Assembly: GCA_965248285.1 (NCBI GenBank)
Contig: CBDFJJ010000005.1
Span: 121,447 to 185,446 of the forward strand
DNA from: Gemmatimonadales bacterium
GTDB lineage: Bacteria; Gemmatimonadota; Gemmatimonadetes; Gemmatimonadales; GWC2-71-9
Length of the DNA stretch: 64,000 nt
Reading direction: 5' to 3'
A model generated the notes under the pieces. That model ran no database searches and was not told the DNA's origin. It saw only the letters and a program-made list of their open reading frames with translations. This document shows, one piece after another, positions 38,367 to 64,000 of this stretch (its first letter is position 1; every line of letters begins with the position of its first letter). Made by a program: the position numbers and the translations under genes.

Positions 38367-38491
38367 GTCTCCTCAGTCCGACGGCCATAGCCGACGGTTC
38401 CGCAGAACCCCCGTAAATACCGCGGTTTCCAATCCCCTGCCCTTTCCTTTTATAAGGGCCTTTTGGGCGTTTCGGCTGGTTTCTGCGTTTG

Positions 38492-38514
38492 TGTTACACG
38501 GTTTGTTACACGGT
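38492..38514. repeat. direct repeat tgttacacggt x2 at 12-bp spacing (possible integrase arm-type sites)
   Basis: Copies at 38492-38502 and 38504-38514, 126 bp from the tRNA-Leu fragment. Confidence 0.5.
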
Positions 38515-38561
38515 CGATCAGTCGTCTCTCCACAACCGGATCCGATACCCGGCCATCCTCA

Positions 38562-38621
38562 GAGGGCGGCGTGAGCCGGGCCACGCTCTACGTGGGTGAC
38601 GCGCTCGAGGTGTTGCGGACG
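38562..38621 (+). repeat. 60-bp direct repeat, left copy (5' end of methyltransferase gene)
   Basis: gagggcggcgtgagccgggccacgctctacgtgggtgacgcgctcgaggtgttgcggacg is identical to 62679-62738. Confidence 0.9.
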
Positions 38622-38891
38622 CTACCCGATGAATCGGTGCAAATGTGCTGTACGTCTCCGCCGTACTGGGGCCTGCGAGATTACGGGGTTGATGGCCAGC
38701 TGGGACTTGAACCCACTCCATGGCTGTACGTCGAGGATATGGTCACGGCGTTCGGATCCGGAACGACCGCAGCTGTCGCCACGGGCCTCGGCCGCAACGC
38801 CATCCACATCGATCTCAATCCCGAATATCTCAACCTCGCCATTGATCGGATCGGGCCGTTCCTGTGTGACGTGAAAGAGGTGGCGGCATGA
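38571..38891 (+). pseudogene. internally deleted DNA methyltransferase (paralog of 55450-56439)
   Basis: GTG start. It keeps N-terminal ...TSPPYWGLRDY...EDMVTAF, then jumps in frame to GSGTTAAVATGLGRNAIHIDLNPEYLNLAIDRIGPFLCDVKEVAA. About 225 codons of the full-length paralog are missing. Confidence 0.8.
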
Positions 38892-39227
38892 GGCGCATCA
38901 GCTTCGCTTTGACTGAGACCGCGTTCCTCGATGGCTCGAAGGACGTCACCCGTCGGCTCGGATGGAAGACGTTGGCTCCAGGAGCCGAGCTGCTCGCGGT
39001 CAACAAGTGCATGGGGCTGCGCAAGGGTGAGCGGGCTCGGATCTTCGGTCCGATCCGTGTGGTGGACGTCAGGCGGGAGCGGCTCTGTGTCATCACGCCG
39101 AGCGATGTTGTACGCGAAGGCTTCCCCGATTTCACTCCTGAGCAATTCATCGACCATTTTCGGGGTACACCGCATCGCATCACAGAACGAGGTGGTGACG
39201 CGCATCGAGTTTGCGAGAATAGCGTGA
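38888..39227 (+). pseudogene. ASCH-domain-like protein, probable frameshift near 39157-39165
   Basis: N-terminus ISFALTETAFLDGSKDVTRRLGWKTLAPGAELLAV is ASCH-like. A family-typical C-terminus (...EVVTRIEFARIA stop at 39227) is in the +1 frame after the run ttttcgggg. Confidence 0.45.
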
Positions 39228-39376
39228 GACGCCGCTTCGCTCTCCGCGTGTGGTGGCACTGCCTCTGTCGCGTCTTTCTACTCAACTACGACCACCGCAT
39301 GTGCTATAGTAGAGCGGGCGGCCTGGAACCTCTGGGATACGGGACAGTTGGAATTACCGAGCGGTGCGACCGGGCA

Positions 39377-39748
39377 ATGGAGCGACGGAGGGCCGGTCGC
39401 GTGACCACCGCTCTCTACCAGGACACCCGGAGAGGGCACGCCACGGAAGCCCAACGGGCGGCAATGCGGATGGTTCACGGCAAGACCGTCACGCCGAACC
39501 CCCGCGAGCGCGAGCTCGACCAGGCCATGAAGACCGTAATCTGGTATACCGCCGGCGGCATCAGCGTGAAGGACATGCCAGCGTATCCCGATGTGGAGCG
39601 TTTCGGGGAGGCCGAGTGTCCATCATGCGGACTTGTCCGGCCGGTGCTGTATCTACCGGATCGACGTTTACCCCTGGTTCCGCTGCTGTGGAGCGTTGTC
39701 CGCGGAATGCCATCTGGATTGCGAACCAGGATGCGGTTGAACAGTTGA
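39377..39748 (+). CDS. hypothetical phage-region protein
   Basis: Internal ATG within the long 38888 frame. MERRRAGRVTTALYQDTRRGHATEAQRAAM... with no motif recognised. Confidence 0.3.
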   Translation: MERRRAGRVTTALYQDTRRGHATEAQRAAMRMVHGKTVTPNPRERELDQAMKTVIWYTAGGISVKDMPAYPDVERFGEAECPSCGLVRPVLYLPDRRLPLVPLLWSVVRGMPSGLRTRMRLNS

Positions 39749-39767
39749 TGAGAATTGAGGGGACGCG

Positions 39768-40463
39768 ATGGGCTTCGCACTCGGTGTGTCGTCGAACATC
39801 GACATTGTCGCCGCCACGCTGGACGGCACCGCTCGCCAGTTGCCGTTTGCGATGGCTCGGACCATCAATGCGAGCGCCAAAGATTTTCAGAAGTTCCAGC
39901 GTAACCACATGCAGAACGTGTTCACCGTTCGGCGCAGGAACTTCGTTCTTCGGTCCGTCAAGATCAAACCGTTCGCCAACAAACGGCGTCTCGAGGCAAC
40001 GGTCAGCATTGACCCGCCCGGTGGTCAGCGCCGTGCGGACATCTTGGTCAAATTCGAGGAAGGCGGGACCAAGCGATCGCGCCGGGCGGGCGGTTCGGTG
40101 GCCGTGCCAATCGCCGTGCGGAAGAGTCGACAAAGCATCATCCGCAAGCGAGATCGGCCACGATCGTTTGCATTCCGTAAAGTTGGGCGTTCCCTACGGG
40201 GGAAGCGCCGGACGTTCCTGATCCCTGGTGTTGGCATCTACCAACGGGTCGGCGCCAAGAAAGCGGGCCGCCGTCTTGCTAGTTCGGTGAAGACGCGTCG
40301 AGTGCGGGACTTAAACATCCGACTTCTATATTCGTTGCGCCCATCAGTAGAAATCCCTAAGAGTCTGCGCTTTATCGCGAACGCCAAGAAGGTCGTTCCT
40401 CGCGTGTTCCCGGGTCACTTCAAGACGGAATTCGCGCGCGCCCTGAGAACGGCAAGGAGATAG
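39768..40463 (+). CDS. hypothetical phage protein (basic; possibly virion-associated)
   Basis: 231-aa ORF within the phage-like block. Function not recognisable from sequence. Confidence 0.45.
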   Translation: MGFALGVSSNIDIVAATLDGTARQLPFAMARTINASAKDFQKFQRNHMQNVFTVRRRNFVLRSVKIKPFANKRRLEATVSIDPPGGQRRADILVKFEEGGTKRSRRAGGSVAVPIAVRKSRQSIIRKRDRPRSFAFRKVGRSLRGKRRTFLIPGVGIYQRVGAKKAGRRLASSVKTRRVRDLNIRLLYSLRPSVEIPKSLRFIANAKKVVPRVFPGHFKTEFARALRTARR

Positions 40464-52017: not shown

Positions 52018-53416
52018 GGTCAAGTCCCGAGTTGTGTGTAAAAGTATTTGAGCAAGCTCCTCGGCACGTTCATCACGCTGCTTGATGCACCTCCTGGTTC
52101 TCGAGTAACGACACGTCGACATACCGCCGCTCACCCCAGATTGTAGTCACCTTCAACGCCACCGCAGTGATCAATCGCAATGCGCTCGCCCGATCGGGAA
52201 ACGCACCGACCGCCTTGGTGCGCCGTTTGATTTCGCCGTGCAACCGCTCGAGCCCGTTCGTCGTGCGAAGCTTCTTCCAGTGCGACGGCGGAAACGCATA
52301 GAACGTGGTCGCCCCCGCAAACCCGCTCGTCAGACAGGCCATGGCTTCGGGGAGTTGCTTGCTCCACCGGGTCTGCAGCCGAGCTAGCTGCTTCCGCGCA
52401 TCGCCCAGACTCGAAGCCCGAAACACGCTGGCCACCTCGCGGGCGAGGCGTTTCCGCAGCCGCTGCGGGGCTTTCGTCAACACGTTCCGTTGCAGGTGCA
52501 CCGTACAGCGTTGCCGCTTGGCCTCCGGAAGCCACCGTCGCACGGCGGCCGCCAGGCCCGCGTGCTGATCCGCAATCACTAACTGCACCCCCGTGAGGCC
52601 GCGGTCGGTCAGCTGCTGCAACAACTCGGACCAACTCGCCTCCGACTCCTCTGCCGCCACCGACACGCCGAGCAGCTGCCGGTGACCATCCGGTCCCACG
52701 GCATACGCCACCAGCGCCGAGACGTTTTCGACCTTTCGCGCCCACCGCGCGTCCACAAACGTGGCGTCCAGGTACAGATAGGGATGCTCGCCATCGATCG
52801 GTGCCCGCTGCAGCGCCTCCACCTCGGCATCCAGCCGCTTGGCCACCCGGCTGACGGTCGAGCGCGACACCCGCTCTCCGAGCAACGCCTCCGTGAGCTC
52901 GCCCGCCTTTCGGTGCGACACACCGTTCACGTACGCACTGGCCAAGAGGTCGTCGATCTCCGCCGTCCGACGCTGGTAGCGGCCCAGCACCTCGCCCGTG
53001 GATCCACTCTCCCGTGAGCGCGGCACCGTCACGTCGATCTGGCCGAGGCTCGTCAACAAGCGGCGGGTGTACGCGCCATTGCGGCGATCGCGACGGCCCG
53101 CGACGCGCGCGTACCACTCCGCTCCCACCAACGCTTCCAACTCCGCTTCCAAGAACAGCTCCAGACTCGCCCGGATCGCACCGCGGAACATCGCTCGCAA
53201 ATCCTGACGCACGGCCTCTTGCGCCACCGGTACCATTTCGCCAACGTCCTGCATAGAGGAAGCTCCTTTTCTTGATCACTGCGTTCACAGCGATCGGATT
53301 CTCGGGTTGTTACTTCTCCCGAGGAGCTTCCTCTTTTTCTTCCACCCCGTCCAGAGGTCCGTGTCTCTCACCTCTGAATCAGACTTCAGCTTCTACACAA
53401 ATTTAGGGACACTACC
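52018..53416 (-). mobile_element. IS256-family insertion sequence (type B)
   Basis: Inverted repeats: ggtcaagtcccgagttgtgtgtaaaag versus the reverse complement of cttctacacaaatttagggacactacc. 8-bp direct repeat TTTGTCAC at 52010-52017 and 53417-53424. Confidence 0.85.
52073..53254 (-). CDS. IS256-family transposase (distinct from 6756-8015)
   Basis: 393 aa. ...YLYLDATFVDAR...LVIADQHAGL...FYAFPPSHWKKLRTTNGLERLHGEIKRRT. Confidence 0.9.
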   Translation of the reverse strand: MQDVGEMVPVAQEAVRQDLRAMFRGAIRASLELFLEAELEALVGAEWYARVAGRRDRRNGAYTRRLLTSLGQIDVTVPRSRESGSTGEVLGRYQRRTAEIDDLLASAYVNGVSHRKAGELTEALLGERVSRSTVSRVAKRLDAEVEALQRAPIDGEHPYLYLDATFVDARWARKVENVSALVAYAVGPDGHRQLLGVSVAAEESEASWSELLQQLTDRGLTGVQLVIADQHAGLAAAVRRWLPEAKRQRCTVHLQRNVLTKAPQRLRKRLAREVASVFRASSLGDARKQLARLQTRWSKQLPEAMACLTSGFAGATTFYAFPPSHWKKLRTTNGLERLHGEIKRRTKAVGAFPDRASALRLITAVALKVTTIWGERRYVDVSLLENQEVHQAA

Positions 53417-55025: not shown

Positions 55026-55453
55026 GCAACGCTCTCGTGCTGCCCGTTCCCCCGACGTCGAACCACTACTGGAAACCCCGGGCGCTGTACAACCGCAGCA
55101 AGACGACGTGGATCGGTACGATCTACAAGACGACGGAAGCCAAAGATTATTGCCATACCGTGCAGGTTATCGCGCTTCTCACCGGTTTTACGCCGTACGC
55201 GACAGGCGTGCAGGTCGTCTTTCACATGGTGTGGTATCGGGAGAACATGCGCGGGGATTTGATGAACAGGGAGAAGTGCTTGGAAGATGCGCTGCAGGGC
55301 GTGCTGTACGAGAACGATCGACAGATCAAAGCGAAGCACACCGAGTGGATCTTGGATCGTGCGCACCCTCGCGTCGAGGTATGGGTGACACCCTACGACG
55401 AGGCGGCGGCCTCAGTGAGTAAGCAAGCCTTGCGGCTGGTGGGGGCCAAGTGA
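55022..55453 (+). CDS. rusA: RusA-family Holliday junction resolvase
   Basis: VLPVPPTSNHYW...RGDLMNREKCLEDALQGVLYENDRQI matches the RusA D-x-D/N...K...DAL...Y.DD.QI pattern. Confidence 0.75.
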   Translation: MSNALVLPVPPTSNHYWKPRALYNRSKTTWIGTIYKTTEAKDYCHTVQVIALLTGFTPYATGVQVVFHMVWYRENMRGDLMNREKCLEDALQGVLYENDRQIKAKHTEWILDRAHPRVEVWVTPYDEAAASVSKQALRLVGAK

Positions 55454-56439
55454 GCCGGGCCATACTATACGTGGGCAACGCGCTTGAGGTGCTACGGACG
55501 CTACCCGACGAATCCGTGCAGTGTTGTGTCACGTCCCCGCCCTACTGGGGCCTGCGGGATTACGACGTCCCCGGCCAGCTGGGGCTCGAAGACTCCCCGG
55601 AGGAATATCTCGACACGATGGTGGCCGTGTTTGGTGCGGTGCGGCGCGCCCTGGCCGCTGACGGTGTGCTCTGGTTGAACATGGGTGATTCGTATGCAGG
55701 GCCTCGCGGCGGATCCGATGGGAAACATGCGGGCCTTCATCGTTACCGGCACAGTGGGCGAACCCGCGACAAAAGGGGTGTTGATCTCAAACCTAAAGAC
55801 CTCGTGATGATGCCGGCCCGTCTAGCGCTCGCGCTACAGGCCGACGGGTGGTGGGTGCGCTCGGACGTAGTGTGGCACAAACCCACGCCGATGCCGGAGA
55901 GCGTGAGCGATCGCCCGACGCGCGCCCACGAGTATGTGTTCCTCCTCTCCAAGAGCGATCGATATTTCTACGATGCCAACGCGATCAAGGAGCCGGTGAC
56001 GGGCAACGCGCACTCGCGTGGGAATGGTGTGAACCCGAAGGCCAAGACGCCGGCGGGATGGGATACGCGAGACGGAGAAACCCATCGAGAAAAGACGGGT
56101 CGTTACCCGCGGCCGAAACAAAACGAATCGTTCTCTGCCGCGGTGTCCGGGCTTGTCGATACACGGAACGCGCGGTCGGTGTGGACGATTCAGGCGAGGC
56201 CCTTCCCTGTCGCGCACTTCGCCACCTTCCCGCCCGAGCTCGTGGCGCGCTGCATCAAAGCCGGCTCGCGACCCGGCAATACGGTGCTCGATCCGTTCGG
56301 CGGATCAGGAACAACCGCAGCCGTCGCGACGGGCCTCGGCCGCGACGCCATCCACATCGACTTAAATCCGGAATACCTCAACCTTGCCATCGATCGGATC
56401 GGGCCGATGTTCGTGGACGTGAAAGAGGTCGCCGCATGA
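55450..56439 (+). CDS. DNA methyltransferase (N4/N6 beta-class order: SPPY ... FGGSGTT)
   Basis: 329 aa. Motif IV TSPPYWGLRDY is N-terminal and motif I DPFGGSGTTAAVA is C-terminal. GTG start overlaps the rusA stop. Confidence 0.85.
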   Translation: MSRAILYVGNALEVLRTLPDESVQCCVTSPPYWGLRDYDVPGQLGLEDSPEEYLDTMVAVFGAVRRALAADGVLWLNMGDSYAGPRGGSDGKHAGLHRYRHSGRTRDKRGVDLKPKDLVMMPARLALALQADGWWVRSDVVWHKPTPMPESVSDRPTRAHEYVFLLSKSDRYFYDANAIKEPVTGNAHSRGNGVNPKAKTPAGWDTRDGETHREKTGRYPRPKQNESFSAAVSGLVDTRNARSVWTIQARPFPVAHFATFPPELVARCIKAGSRPGNTVLDPFGGSGTTAAVATGLGRDAIHIDLNPEYLNLAIDRIGPMFVDVKEVAA

Positions 56440-57529: not shown

Positions 57530-57634
57530 CCGATACGCTACGGGAGGCGGCAGAGGAGGCTGCAAGGTTGCTGCGCACGTTCGCACCGCTAGGTGAGGAG
57601 GGAAGCAAAGTCAAACTGGGACTCGCGAACCTAG

Positions 57635-58947
57635 CAGGTTGCGGAAAAATTCATGGTGAGCCGCGTTTGTCCGGGTAACACGACGGTGTACCAGCGTGCG
57701 GTCCCCTATTACCGCCCCCGCGGTGCGGTCGGCGTGACGAATGCGGCCCACACTGCCCCATCAGGGGCTGCCTTCGGCCAGGGTCAGGGTGCGTATCCGC
57801 ATCAGATTGTAGACCGCGGCCGTGAACGTAAACACCCACCCGACCCGCGGGGTCCCGCGATGTCGGAGTTTGCGTAACAACCCAATCGTCTTGCCCCACC
57901 CGTAGATCTCTTCCACTTTTTTGCGCTGCCGTTGACTGATCGCATAGCTGGGATGGCGCGTCGTCCGGCCATCCACCGCGCTCCGCAACCGCGTGCGGTG
58001 CACGTTCGGCGTGACGTGGGGCGTCCAGCCCAACGCCCGCAGCGTGTCGACAAACCCGCACCGATCATAACCCTTGTCCGCCCCCAACGTCCGACGCCGG
58101 GCCGTCGGCGGTAAGCTCCCCACCATCGCCAGCGCACTCGCACACTCCGCCTCGTAGCCGGGCTGCGTCACGTCGGTCGCCACCACGAGCCCGTGCCGAT
58201 TATCCATCAACACACTCGCCAAGTACGCCAATTGCGCGCCTTGCCCCCCACTCTTCCGCGTCAACCGCGCCTCCGGGTCCGTCCGCGACGCATGCGTCGC
58301 ATTCGTCCGTTTCTCCTGGCGAAACGTCACGCTCGGATTCCCCGGATCATCGTCCGTTGGCGGGCGGGTGCCGGCCTTCGGCTGAAAACTCTTCTGACTC
58401 GCCCACGCGTCCAGCAAGGTCCCGTCGACGGTGAAATGCTCATTCGACAACAACGCCCGCCGCTCCGCCTCCTGTAACACTTCGGCCAGAAACGCATCCG
58501 CGATGCCCCCCTCGACCAGCCGCGTCCGATTCTTCGTAAAGACCGTCGGCACCCACACCGCGTCGTCCAGATTCAACCCCACAAACCATCGGTACAGGAT
58601 GTTGTAATCGAGCTGCTCCATCAGCTGCCGCTCGCTCCGGATCGTATACACCACCTGCAGCAATAACGCGCGTAACAAATGTTCCGGGGGAATCGACGGC
58701 CGGCCCCGCCGCGCGTACAGCCGGTCCAACTGCGGCGAGAGCCGGGCTAACACCGGGTCCACCAGCGCCCGCAGGGCGCGCAACGGATGGTCGGAGGGCA
58801 CCCGATCCTCCGCACTGATATAGCTGAACAGCGCCGACTGATTCGTCTTGTTCCCGCGCATCGTGGCACTCCCATCGAGGTCCCTCTACGATAAGAACTT
58901 CCGGCTCGCGATGCTATCGTCCATTACCCGACTTTTTCCGCAACCTG
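57635..58947 (-). mobile_element. IS5-family insertion sequence, copy 3 (1313 bp)
   Basis: Same inverted repeats as the other copies. CTAG on both flanks (57631-57634 and 58948-58951). Confidence 0.9.
57761..58861 (-). CDS. IS5-family DDE transposase
   Basis: 366 aa. Differs from copies 1 and 2 in the track translation only at ...LTLAEGSP versus ...LTLAGGSP. Confidence 0.9.
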   Translation of the reverse strand: MRGNKTNQSALFSYISAEDRVPSDHPLRALRALVDPVLARLSPQLDRLYARRGRPSIPPEHLLRALLLQVVYTIRSERQLMEQLDYNILYRWFVGLNLDDAVWVPTVFTKNRTRLVEGGIADAFLAEVLQEAERRALLSNEHFTVDGTLLDAWASQKSFQPKAGTRPPTDDDPGNPSVTFRQEKRTNATHASRTDPEARLTRKSGGQGAQLAYLASVLMDNRHGLVVATDVTQPGYEAECASALAMVGSLPPTARRRTLGADKGYDRCGFVDTLRALGWTPHVTPNVHRTRLRSAVDGRTTRHPSYAISQRQRKKVEEIYGWGKTIGLLRKLRHRGTPRVGWVFTFTAAVYNLMRIRTLTLAEGSP

Positions 58948-59132
58948 CTAGAAGCCGCCCTTGCCGCTGACGCGCCCGAAGGACCGTACCGTGCTGTGCC
59001 GTCAGACCACGACGGTGACGAGCGATGGATGGTCCGTCACTTAGCTGAGAAGGTGGGATGTATATACGGGACCCAAGGGGAGTGTGAGGATATACGTGAC
59101 GTTCTCAACCGCCACGCGCAGCAGCAGGAGGG

Positions 59133-62678: not shown

Positions 62679-62738
62679 GAGGGCGGCGTGAGCCGGGCCA
62701 CGCTCTACGTGGGTGACGCGCTCGAGGTGTTGCGGACG
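62679..62738 (+). repeat. 60-bp direct repeat, right copy (orphan 5' end of the beta-class methyltransferase gene)
   Basis: Identical to 38562-38621. Homology stops after ...EVLRT, and the frame runs on into an unrelated methyltransferase gene. Confidence 0.9.
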
Positions 62739-62774
62739 GCGCTTCACCAACCATTTCTCCGAGGGAGGACGCCG

Positions 62775-63659
62775 ATGCCACAAGTAACCGATGCGATCAA
62801 GAAGAAGAGCAAATTGACCAAGGAAGAGTGGCGCGATTACACCAAGACGGTGTGGCACATCGCGAACACTACGCACGCCGAGCACCCGGCTGTCTTTCCG
62901 GTCGAGATCCCGCACCGCCTGGTCAAGCTCTTCAGTTGGCACGGCGACACCGTCCTCGATCCGTTCGCCGGTACAGGTACGACCGCACAAGCCGCCGTGC
63001 CTCTCGGCCGCAAGGTGATCTGCGTCGACCAGAGCAAAACGTACACCAACATCATTCGCCGCGAGTGCAGCCACCTGAAGAACGGTCGCCTGACTGCGAC
63101 CGAGCTCCTGGAAGTGGTGCACGGCGACAGCCGCGACCTCTCGTTCGTCGAAGATGATTCCGTCTCACTCATCGTTTCCAGCCCGCCATACTGGAACAAG
63201 GCCAACTACGGCAAGGCTCGTGCGAACATCGGCAATGTCGCGGGCTACCGCCGCTTTCTCGATGAGATACGCCCGGTCTTCGAGGAGTGCTTTCGTGTTC
63301 TGCAGCCGGGTCGCAAGTGCTGCTTGGTCACGGCCAACGTCAATCAGCATACCGACCACGGCCTCTTGACCTTCCCGCTCGCCGCGGACTATGGGGTCAT
63401 GCTGCGCGAGATCGGCTTTATGATGGTCACCGAGGTCATCTGGTCGAAGGATGGCACAGGCGGACGGTGGGGGTCTGCGAATGCACAACGCCCCATCTTC
63501 GGGAGCTACCCGTATCCGCCGAACTTCCTCTTCAAGAACATTCACGAGTACGTCTTGGTCTTCTCCAAGCCGCCGTCGAAGAAATCGAAGGGACCCAACG
63601 TCGTGCCGTACGATGAAATCATGGCCGAGCCGCGCCAGCGGAACGGGCGGGCTCGGTAG
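62775..63659 (+). CDS. DNA methyltransferase with permuted motif order (HPAVFP-DPFAGTGTT first, SSPPYW later)
   Basis: Start placed at ATG 62775, behind GAGGGAGGA. Motif I DPFAGTGTTAQAA lies upstream of motif IV IVSSPPYWN. The track ORF start (62592) includes the orphan 60-bp fragment. Confidence 0.8.
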   Translation: MPQVTDAIKKKSKLTKEEWRDYTKTVWHIANTTHAEHPAVFPVEIPHRLVKLFSWHGDTVLDPFAGTGTTAQAAVPLGRKVICVDQSKTYTNIIRRECSHLKNGRLTATELLEVVHGDSRDLSFVEDDSVSLIVSSPPYWNKANYGKARANIGNVAGYRRFLDEIRPVFEECFRVLQPGRKCCLVTANVNQHTDHGLLTFPLAADYGVMLREIGFMMVTEVIWSKDGTGGRWGSANAQRPIFGSYPYPPNFLFKNIHEYVLVFSKPPSKKSKGPNVVPYDEIMAEPRQRNGRAR

Positions 63660-63675
63660 TAAAGGGAAACGGACG

Positions 63676-64000
63676 ATGGACTGCGAATTTCATCTTCAAG
63701 ACCCGACATCGCCGGACACAGTTTATCTCTTCGAGGCGATCATTGGTGCCTCGCGCGGCGCCGCCACATGCACAGGCATGTTTGCGTTCGCGTCGCGCGC
63801 CGGTGTTGATTCCCTGATCGGCGACCCCGAGACGCAGCACTTTCTTGGCGAGTCGACGATGTCGCTGCTTGTTGGCATCGACGCAGTCACGAACCGCCAC
63901 ACCCTCGAGCGTCTCCAGGAGCTTGAGCAGGAGCATGAGAGCTTGAGCGTCCAGGTCTTCTGGAACCCGACGAACGCTCTCTTTCACCCGAAGGTAGCTC
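63676..64000 (+). CDS. PLD-like (HxK) nuclease-family protein, N-terminal part (runs off window)
   Basis: Own translation of the open frame: MDCEFHLQDPTSPDTVYLFEAIIGASRGAATCTGMFAFASRAGVDSL...VQVFWNPTNALFHPKV. It contains an H-x-K motif. Starts 16 nt after the methyltransferase stop. Absent from the ORF track because it has no stop in the window. Confidence 0.5.
   Translation, partial: MDCEFHLQDPTSPDTVYLFEAIIGASRGAATCTGMFAFASRAGVDSLIGDPETQHFLGESTMSLLVGIDAVTNRHTLERLQELEQEHESLSVQVFWNPTNALFHPKVA

Follow-up and report, generated by a model that had tools for sequence, protein, structure and literature searches.

A prophage methyltransferase beside a truncated BfiI-like nuclease gene: a probable remnant of a mobile restriction-modification operon

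The methyltransferase M2 and the adjoining PLD reading frame

At the right edge of the window, by which we mean the whole 64,000-nt stretch of Gemmatimonadales DNA analysed here, two genes follow one another on the + strand. The first, M2 (62775-63659; ATG at 62775, stop codon at 63657-63659), encodes an intact DNA methyltransferase of 294 aa and is preceded by a ribosome-binding site, GAGGGAGGA, at 62761-62769. Motif I (FAGTG, aa 64-68, within DPFAGTGTT, aa 62-70) comes before motif IV (SPPY, aa 136-139, within SSPPYW, aa 135-140). An earlier note, made from the letters of the window, had described both this order and the strength of the ribosome-binding site, and on both points it holds.

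Methyltransferases of the gamma class carry motif I and then motif IV, while those of the beta class have the order IV - TRD - I (class definitions in PMC7544214). The order in M2 is X-I ... IV-VIII, not that of the beta class. The protein is nevertheless a member of Pfam family PF01555 (N6_N4_Mtase; 124.8 bits, cut-off 26.7), to which it aligns in two swapped stretches, with the M2 N-terminus matching the end of the profile. Its closest solved structure is the beta-class enzyme TTHA0409 (2zie, E 4e-41), and there too the alignment is swapped: M2 residues 117-268 correspond to residues 27-178 of the chain, and residues 5-96 to 183-275. M2 thus has the same catalytic domain as the TTHA0409-like beta-class N6/N4 enzymes of PF01555, with FxGxG and SPPYW, but its halves stand in the opposite order (I then IV). 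The intact beta-class paralogue in the window (55450-56436), which PF01555 matches in a single stretch (1-220), likewise gives a swapped alignment with M2. All three comparisons bear out the earlier claim that the order is reversed relative to the beta class, and M2 is, judging from these alignments, a natural circular permutant of the beta-class PF01555 family with gamma-class motif order. More than 5,500 clusters (90% identity) match M2 at E below 1e-20, and the best 120 of them have its length and motif order at 90-100% coverage. The permuted order is real but abundant and nothing unusual, and a permuted methyltransferase of this kind is ordinary.

As a general rule with exceptions, NPPY goes with m6A and SPPY with m4C. 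From its SPPY, M2 is probably an N4-cytosine methyltransferase; here and below we infer enzymatic activities and base specificities, as well as the expression of M2. A promoter and terminator scan of the region gave nothing exceeding shuffled expectation.

The second gene, which we call R', is the 5' part of a BfiI-like PLD restriction endonuclease gene. Its open reading frame starts at 63676, 16 nt 3' of the M2 stop codon, and runs to 64299 on the + strand, of which the part to 64000, with 108 codons, lies inside the window. It begins MDCEFHLQDP... and contains NALFHPKV, with H104 and K106; these observations of the earlier note are all confirmed. The contig runs 3,584 nt past the window (locus L001, in which positions are window positions minus 60000). 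With this extension, R' narrowly passes the Pfam threshold for PLDc_2 (29.2 bits vs a cut-off of 27). In an alignment of 90 full-length homologues, H104, P105, K106, G122, S123, N125 and E136 never vary, and R' has them all. Because this catalytic signature is invariant across the family, the PLD-superfamily assignment proposed earlier from the visible codons is confirmed.

The reading frame stops 299 nt past the window end, at 207 aa, which is the kind of early ending that the earlier note had said would tell against its candidate system. R' is homologous to the family over residues 1-150 only, and its last 57 residues are unrelated. With the closest full-length homologue (P0002, 354 aa) it shares 83% identity over residues 1-157 and is unrelated thereafter. 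At the DNA level, homology to R ends at codon 150, where CTCGAG is followed by AATAGCG (window-equivalent 64121-64125), with the microhomology CGAG at the joint. DNA past this right junction is 95.6% identical to window positions 39214-39304, and the peptide of the R' tail (ENSVRRRFALRVWWHCLCRVFLL...) is also found within the open reading frame 38888-39748. Since the tail DNA is prophage backbone, residues 151-207 of R' are translated backbone. The C-terminal half of R was not found in the 6.45-Mb assembly by tblastn with six full-length homologues; the assembly is 93% complete, in 13 contigs, and the absence of this half, like that of the gene M1 described below, is to be read as not found in the assembly.

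The R family and its relation to BfiI

Homologues of R number 195 in a word-indexed search and 731 clusters, at E up to 0.001, in an exhaustive one. Several hundred 50%-identity clusters have the PLD domain in common, 20 of them at E below 1e-30. The homologues align to query residues 1 to ~158 only. Among the best 150 listed, 149 are 96-402 aa long and one has 583 aa, the complete ones being mostly 350-390 aa; in the alignment of 90 full-length homologues, conserved positions are found across the C-terminal half as well.

The profile of these 90 homologues matched BfiI (2c1l) at E 1.8e-5, positions 91-168 running nearly collinear with 92-166, and H104, K106, N125 and E136 were aligned to the BfiI catalytic residues. 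A single-sequence search of PDB sequences with a full-length homologue found nothing significant; the family profile alone reached BfiI. We used the same alignment for an AlphaFold2 model of P0002 (mean pLDDT 94.6, pTM 0.91). In Foldseek searches with this model, BfiI (2c1l) ranked first (E 4.6e-13) and R.NgoAVII (4rct) fourth (E 3.7e-10), both over the full length. VIA-align superposed model residues 2-349 on BfiI with a Z of 16.9. The C-domain of the model (198-350) matched the BfiI-C/DNA structure 3zi5 (Z 11.7, 138 residues aligned, rmsd 3.4) and the B3-like N-domain of LlaJI.R1 (VIA-align, Z 11.3). The full-length R family is thus predicted to have the BfiI architecture, a PLD nuclease joined to a B3-like DNA-binding pseudobarrel. 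One caveat here is that the likeness to BfiI is remote (12-13% identity) and comes mainly from the predicted structure of a homologue, not from R' itself.

Compared with the type IIS enzymes BfiI and BmrI (2c1l, 3zi5), the full-length relatives are of similar size (~355-385 aa vs 358), have a PLD N-domain, in which the positions of the catalytic H, K, N and E nearly coincide with those of BfiI, and a B3-like C-domain, and lie beside two methyltransferases, as expected for an asymmetric site. The low identity sets them apart, as does the operon's pair of methyltransferases, one gamma-class with NPPY and one permuted with SPPY, whereas the BfiI system has two m4C methyltransferases. R' itself differs in having nothing of the family past residue 150. 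With R.NgoAVII and R.CglI, which need an ATPase partner (the N or H subunit), the relatives share the two-domain architecture (PLD + B3-like), but the loci examined have no conserved ATPase gene next to the operon, where R is accompanied by two methyltransferases instead.

In the BfiI homodimer, a single active site that needs no metal ion lies where the two N-domains meet, and the strands are cut in succession via a covalent phospho-histidine intermediate (PMC4081073). The same paper calls PLD-type restriction enzymes 'far from rare'. NCBIfam has no model for R, and no restriction-enzyme model of Pfam or PADLOC recognised the two R-family members tested; for R', the Pfam model RE_NgoFVII gave a faint match (E 0.033). 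Named members of the family bear no annotation more specific than phospholipase D family protein or HKD family nuclease. The R family is an uncharacterised, sequence-remote branch of the known PLD-type restriction enzymes. It is sizeable, and at the intact loci that we examined R is accompanied by two methyltransferases. Type IIS enzymes of this metal-independent kind, if they have new specificities, would be of interest for restriction-enzyme and genome-engineering work.

Set against this family, R' retains the start codon, the ribosome-binding site and the PLD signature (HxK...GSxN...E) with the catalytic H104, K106, N125 and E136. The C-terminal B3-like domain is absent: cut at residue 150 of ~355-385, R' is missing the last two modelled helices of its PLD domain (152-160 and 170-186), and neither the linker nor any part of the recognition domain is left. 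As the recognition domain is lost, R' cannot act as a sequence-specific restriction enzyme.

Recurrent inactivation of the R nuclease gene in different lineages is suggested, with contig-edge effects possible. That R genes decay before M genes is a familiar pattern, and short N-terminal parts of R-family proteins with unrelated tails fit it. On long contigs, P0010, P0046, P0058, P0077 and P0097 are also N-terminal R pieces with unrelated tails.

Intact operons elsewhere and the captured fragment

A scan of species-representative genomes identified four loci, in a Planctomycetaceae MAG, two Vicinamibacterales MAGs and an Acidobacteria MAG, in all of which M2 lies directly 5' of R. The M2 of the window is 78-92% identical, over its full length, to the M2 of four loci in other genomes. 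A further gene, M1, completes the operon: the three genes stand in the order M1-M2-R at L002, L003, L005 and L015, and L004, which lies at a contig end, holds part of the set. M1 encodes 720-820 aa with Eco57I / N6_Mtase domains and an NPPY motif, which makes it a putative gamma-class NPPY adenine methyltransferase, and it overlaps the start of M2. In L015, which comes from the window's own phylum, the order M1-M2-R is found at 39%, 64% and 45% identity. A distant R (L016, 32% identical) adjoins two methyltransferases, one D12-class and one beta-class. The loci share M1-M2-R only, with unrelated flanks. No conserved ATPase or helicase partner gene was found among the loci examined, and an SMC-like gene near L003 has no counterpart at the others.

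Of 400 further genomes sampled from the phylum, 2 carry a full-length relative of R, and no match came from the single congeneric genome searched. This rarity among the genomes sampled indicates that the operon is horizontally mobile and sporadically distributed. A type IIS system with an asymmetric site is expected to consist of two methyltransferases and one nuclease, as here. By analogy with BfiI, intact R would work as a homodimer that has one PLD active site, independent of metal ions, and its C-terminal B3-like domain would recognise the asymmetric site, while M1 and M2 would protect the two strands of that site.

At the window's locus, the DNA derived from such an operon is confined to 62738-64124 (the end lying past the window), a 1.39-kb fragment with the make-up M1'-M2-R'. 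To its left lies recipient DNA, the first ~17 codons (MSRATLYVGDALEVLRT) of a prophage beta-class methyltransferase gene (62679-62738, + strand). This flank is 100% identical over 60 nt to window positions 38562-38621, at the start of a paralogous beta-class methyltransferase gene (...SRATLYVGDALEVLRT). DNA homology to the intact operons L004, L002 and L005 begins at 62735-62739, at ...GGCGCTTCACCAACC, ~37 nt before M2, and the stretch 62738-62774 (+ strand) is the 3' end of M1 as found in those three loci. This remnant, the last ~13 codons of M1, carries the M2 ribosome-binding site; beyond these terminal codons, no M1 was found in the genome assembly by tblastn with M1.

The fragment replaces most of the phage beta-class methyltransferase gene and the beginning of the next gene. 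Prophage backbone resumes 3' of ~64124, and the flanks as a whole are paralogous to 38562-40075: the DNA directly past the junction is equivalent to 39214-39304, and that past an IS element to 39312-39429 and 39689-40075. This IS1595-family element (2,119 bp, L001 4258-6376, window-equivalent 64258-66376, with 21-nt terminal inverted repeats) was considered as the cause of the R truncation and rejected: it starts at 64258, 133 nt past the junction at ~64124, and the DNA in between is prophage backbone. Its transposase gene lies at L001 5354-6328 on the minus strand, and a passenger open reading frame of 286 aa (L001 4296-5156, GC 0.49) has a faint DUF4145 match only. An identical copy of the element is found at C10:171532-173650 and an interrupted one on C9.

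The GTG at 62689, start codon of the interrupted phage methyltransferase gene, is in frame with M2, with no stop codon between (62689-62777). An M2 with an N-terminal extension of 29 aa (MSRATLYVGDALEVLRT...) could thus arise from the phage gene's translation signals. Three phage beta-class methyltransferase loci lie on the contig, of which only 55450-56439 is intact; the product of the paralogous prophage gene at 38463-38891 (142 aa) is internally deleted, so that motif IV is joined almost directly to motif I. Scans of the region for tRNAs and Rfam families found nothing, and hence there is no tRNA att site at the locus.

Reads and public contigs bear on both the junctions and the donor. A 1,636-nt contig built from the reads of the probable source sample is identical to L001 2608-4243 throughout; it bridges both junctions and ends at the IS. 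Contigs from two other studies match L001 2737-4124, exactly the captured fragment, with 3-4 differences (99.8%). To the left they continue as GTCGCCGTCGACCAAAACGACGAAACGCGC, which resembles the M1 ends of L004 and L002, and to the right as CGTGTCGTCCTGGGATCGCTTCCTCACCGA, which resembles a continuing R gene (..SSWDRFL..); one of them reaches ~950 nt further on each side. A near-identical intact form of M1-M2-R therefore exists elsewhere, and its existence indicates that the capture is recent. A metatranscriptome library from another sample holds one contig with M2 and another that crosses into intact R; these are no evidence for transcription of the window's locus.

The genome also carries a second copy of M2. 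C11:519811-518796 is 99.7% identical to window positions 62740-63755; it encodes the same M2 protein and retains just the first 27 codons of R. This copy (L006, C11:514000-524000) sits between an excisionase-like gene and the tyrosine integrase of a second prophage. In a paralogous prophage (C3:2900-3560), the same cargo slot holds a gene for a lipoprotein of ~120 aa, in place of which C11 has the M2 fragment. The left junction is common to both M2 copies, which points to one capture event for both. As M2 is identical and R nearly gone in the C11 copy, R is dispensable in this genome. The C11 and C3 prophages differ in the cargo slot only, a clean example of moron exchange.

Origin of the locus

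Taken as a type II restriction-modification system, the locus is incomplete, with R truncated and M1 lost save for ~13 codons. We consider it likely, with a probability of about 0.85, that it is a decayed restriction-modification remnant, made up of an orphan prophage methyltransferase, putatively active, and a nuclease pseudogene. The source would be a mobile three-gene operon resembling a type IIS system, from which an internal fragment of 1.39 kb was captured. Illegitimate recombination at microhomologies of 1-4 nt would have spliced this fragment into a prophage beta-class methyltransferase gene, reducing M1 to its last ~13 codons, leaving M2 complete with its own ribosome-binding site and cutting R after residue 150.

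The earlier note had seen here a candidate restriction-modification module. As to descent the proposal stands, since the locus goes back to a restriction-modification system with a BfiI-type PLD nuclease; as to function it does not, with R cut at residue 150 and M1 missing. Because the contig extension shows R to be truncated, the locus is a remnant and not a working defence system, and we suggest that its annotation name an orphan methyltransferase and a nuclease pseudogene. Like other orphan and phage-borne methyltransferases, it has an intact M beside a disabled R, carried as prophage cargo in two copies. Unlike orphans left by the decay of a restriction-modification system, it did not decay in situ: an operon fragment was captured into a phage methyltransferase gene. 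The two junctions and the recipient allele can be read off, as can a donor form that is intact and near-identical; the locus is a clean, datable case of a prophage gaining a methyltransferase.

As to what the prophages gained, we tentatively raise the possibility that M2 alone was captured as a self-immunising counter-defence against the intact, 99.8% identical type IIS restriction-modification system that would be circulating in communities of the same kind. M2 would then have been swapped in for the prophage's own methyltransferase or a cargo gene, and what is left of M1 and R would be the scars of captures in which selection acted on M2 only. This proposal is plausible but clearly less likely than not to be correct.

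The remaining explanations depart from the reading of the locus as a decayed remnant. The truncated PLD core might serve as a non-specific nuclease or toxin, like the isolated BfiI N-domain, or as a dominant-negative subunit that poisons incoming intact R. All active-site residues are kept, and titles cited in PMC4081073 present BfiI as the fusion of a PLD nuclease, itself non-specific, with a DNA-binding domain that is specific. However, two helices of the modelled PLD domain (152-160 and 170-186) are lost and 57 unrelated residues added, the C11 copy is without nearly the whole R gene, and other short family members with unrelated tails suggest ordinary decay; we regard a residual activity of this kind as improbable. 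More improbable still is that the two genes form a minimal but functional restriction-modification system, with M2 as the protecting and the 207-aa PLD protein as the restricting enzyme. They lie side by side in the same orientation, both have a ribosome-binding site, and the catalytic HxK...GSxN...E residues are intact, but residues 151-207 come from prophage backbone, the recognition domain of complete homologues is missing, and the C11 copy retains just 27 R codons beside an identical M2.

We give very little credence to the truncation being an assembly artefact. The genome is rich in IS elements, one of them present in more than 200 copies, and an IS lies 133 nt from the junction; yet the junction is in unique sequence rather than at an IS end, and the independently built 1,636-nt contig from the source sample crosses both junctions with no difference. 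The larger helicase-containing defence module that the earlier note had entertained, in which the open reading frame would be the N-terminus of a big PLD-helicase protein (SauUSI, PbeA or PLD-helicase type), can in effect be dismissed, for although the R' PLD core gives weak PADLOC matches to the PbeA, PDC-M27B and PLD_Helicase models and the SauUSI PLD domain gives the closest structural match of any single domain, the extended reading frame stops at 207 aa with no helicase/ATPase domain behind its PLD part, 149 of the best 150 relatives have at most 402 aa, the family's C-terminal domain is B3-like and no helicase gene is conserved beside the operon at the loci examined.

Insertion sequences are abundant throughout this genome. 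A 1,322-bp element (57631-58952), with a DDE transposase of 366 aa, is the one present in more than 200 nearly identical copies, distributed over all 13 contigs, and a 1,399-bp element (52018-53416) has ~20 copies. The genome measures 6.4 Mb, compared to ~3.1 Mb in the single congeneric genome searched. Together these figures suggest that IS elements have multiplied massively in the recent past.
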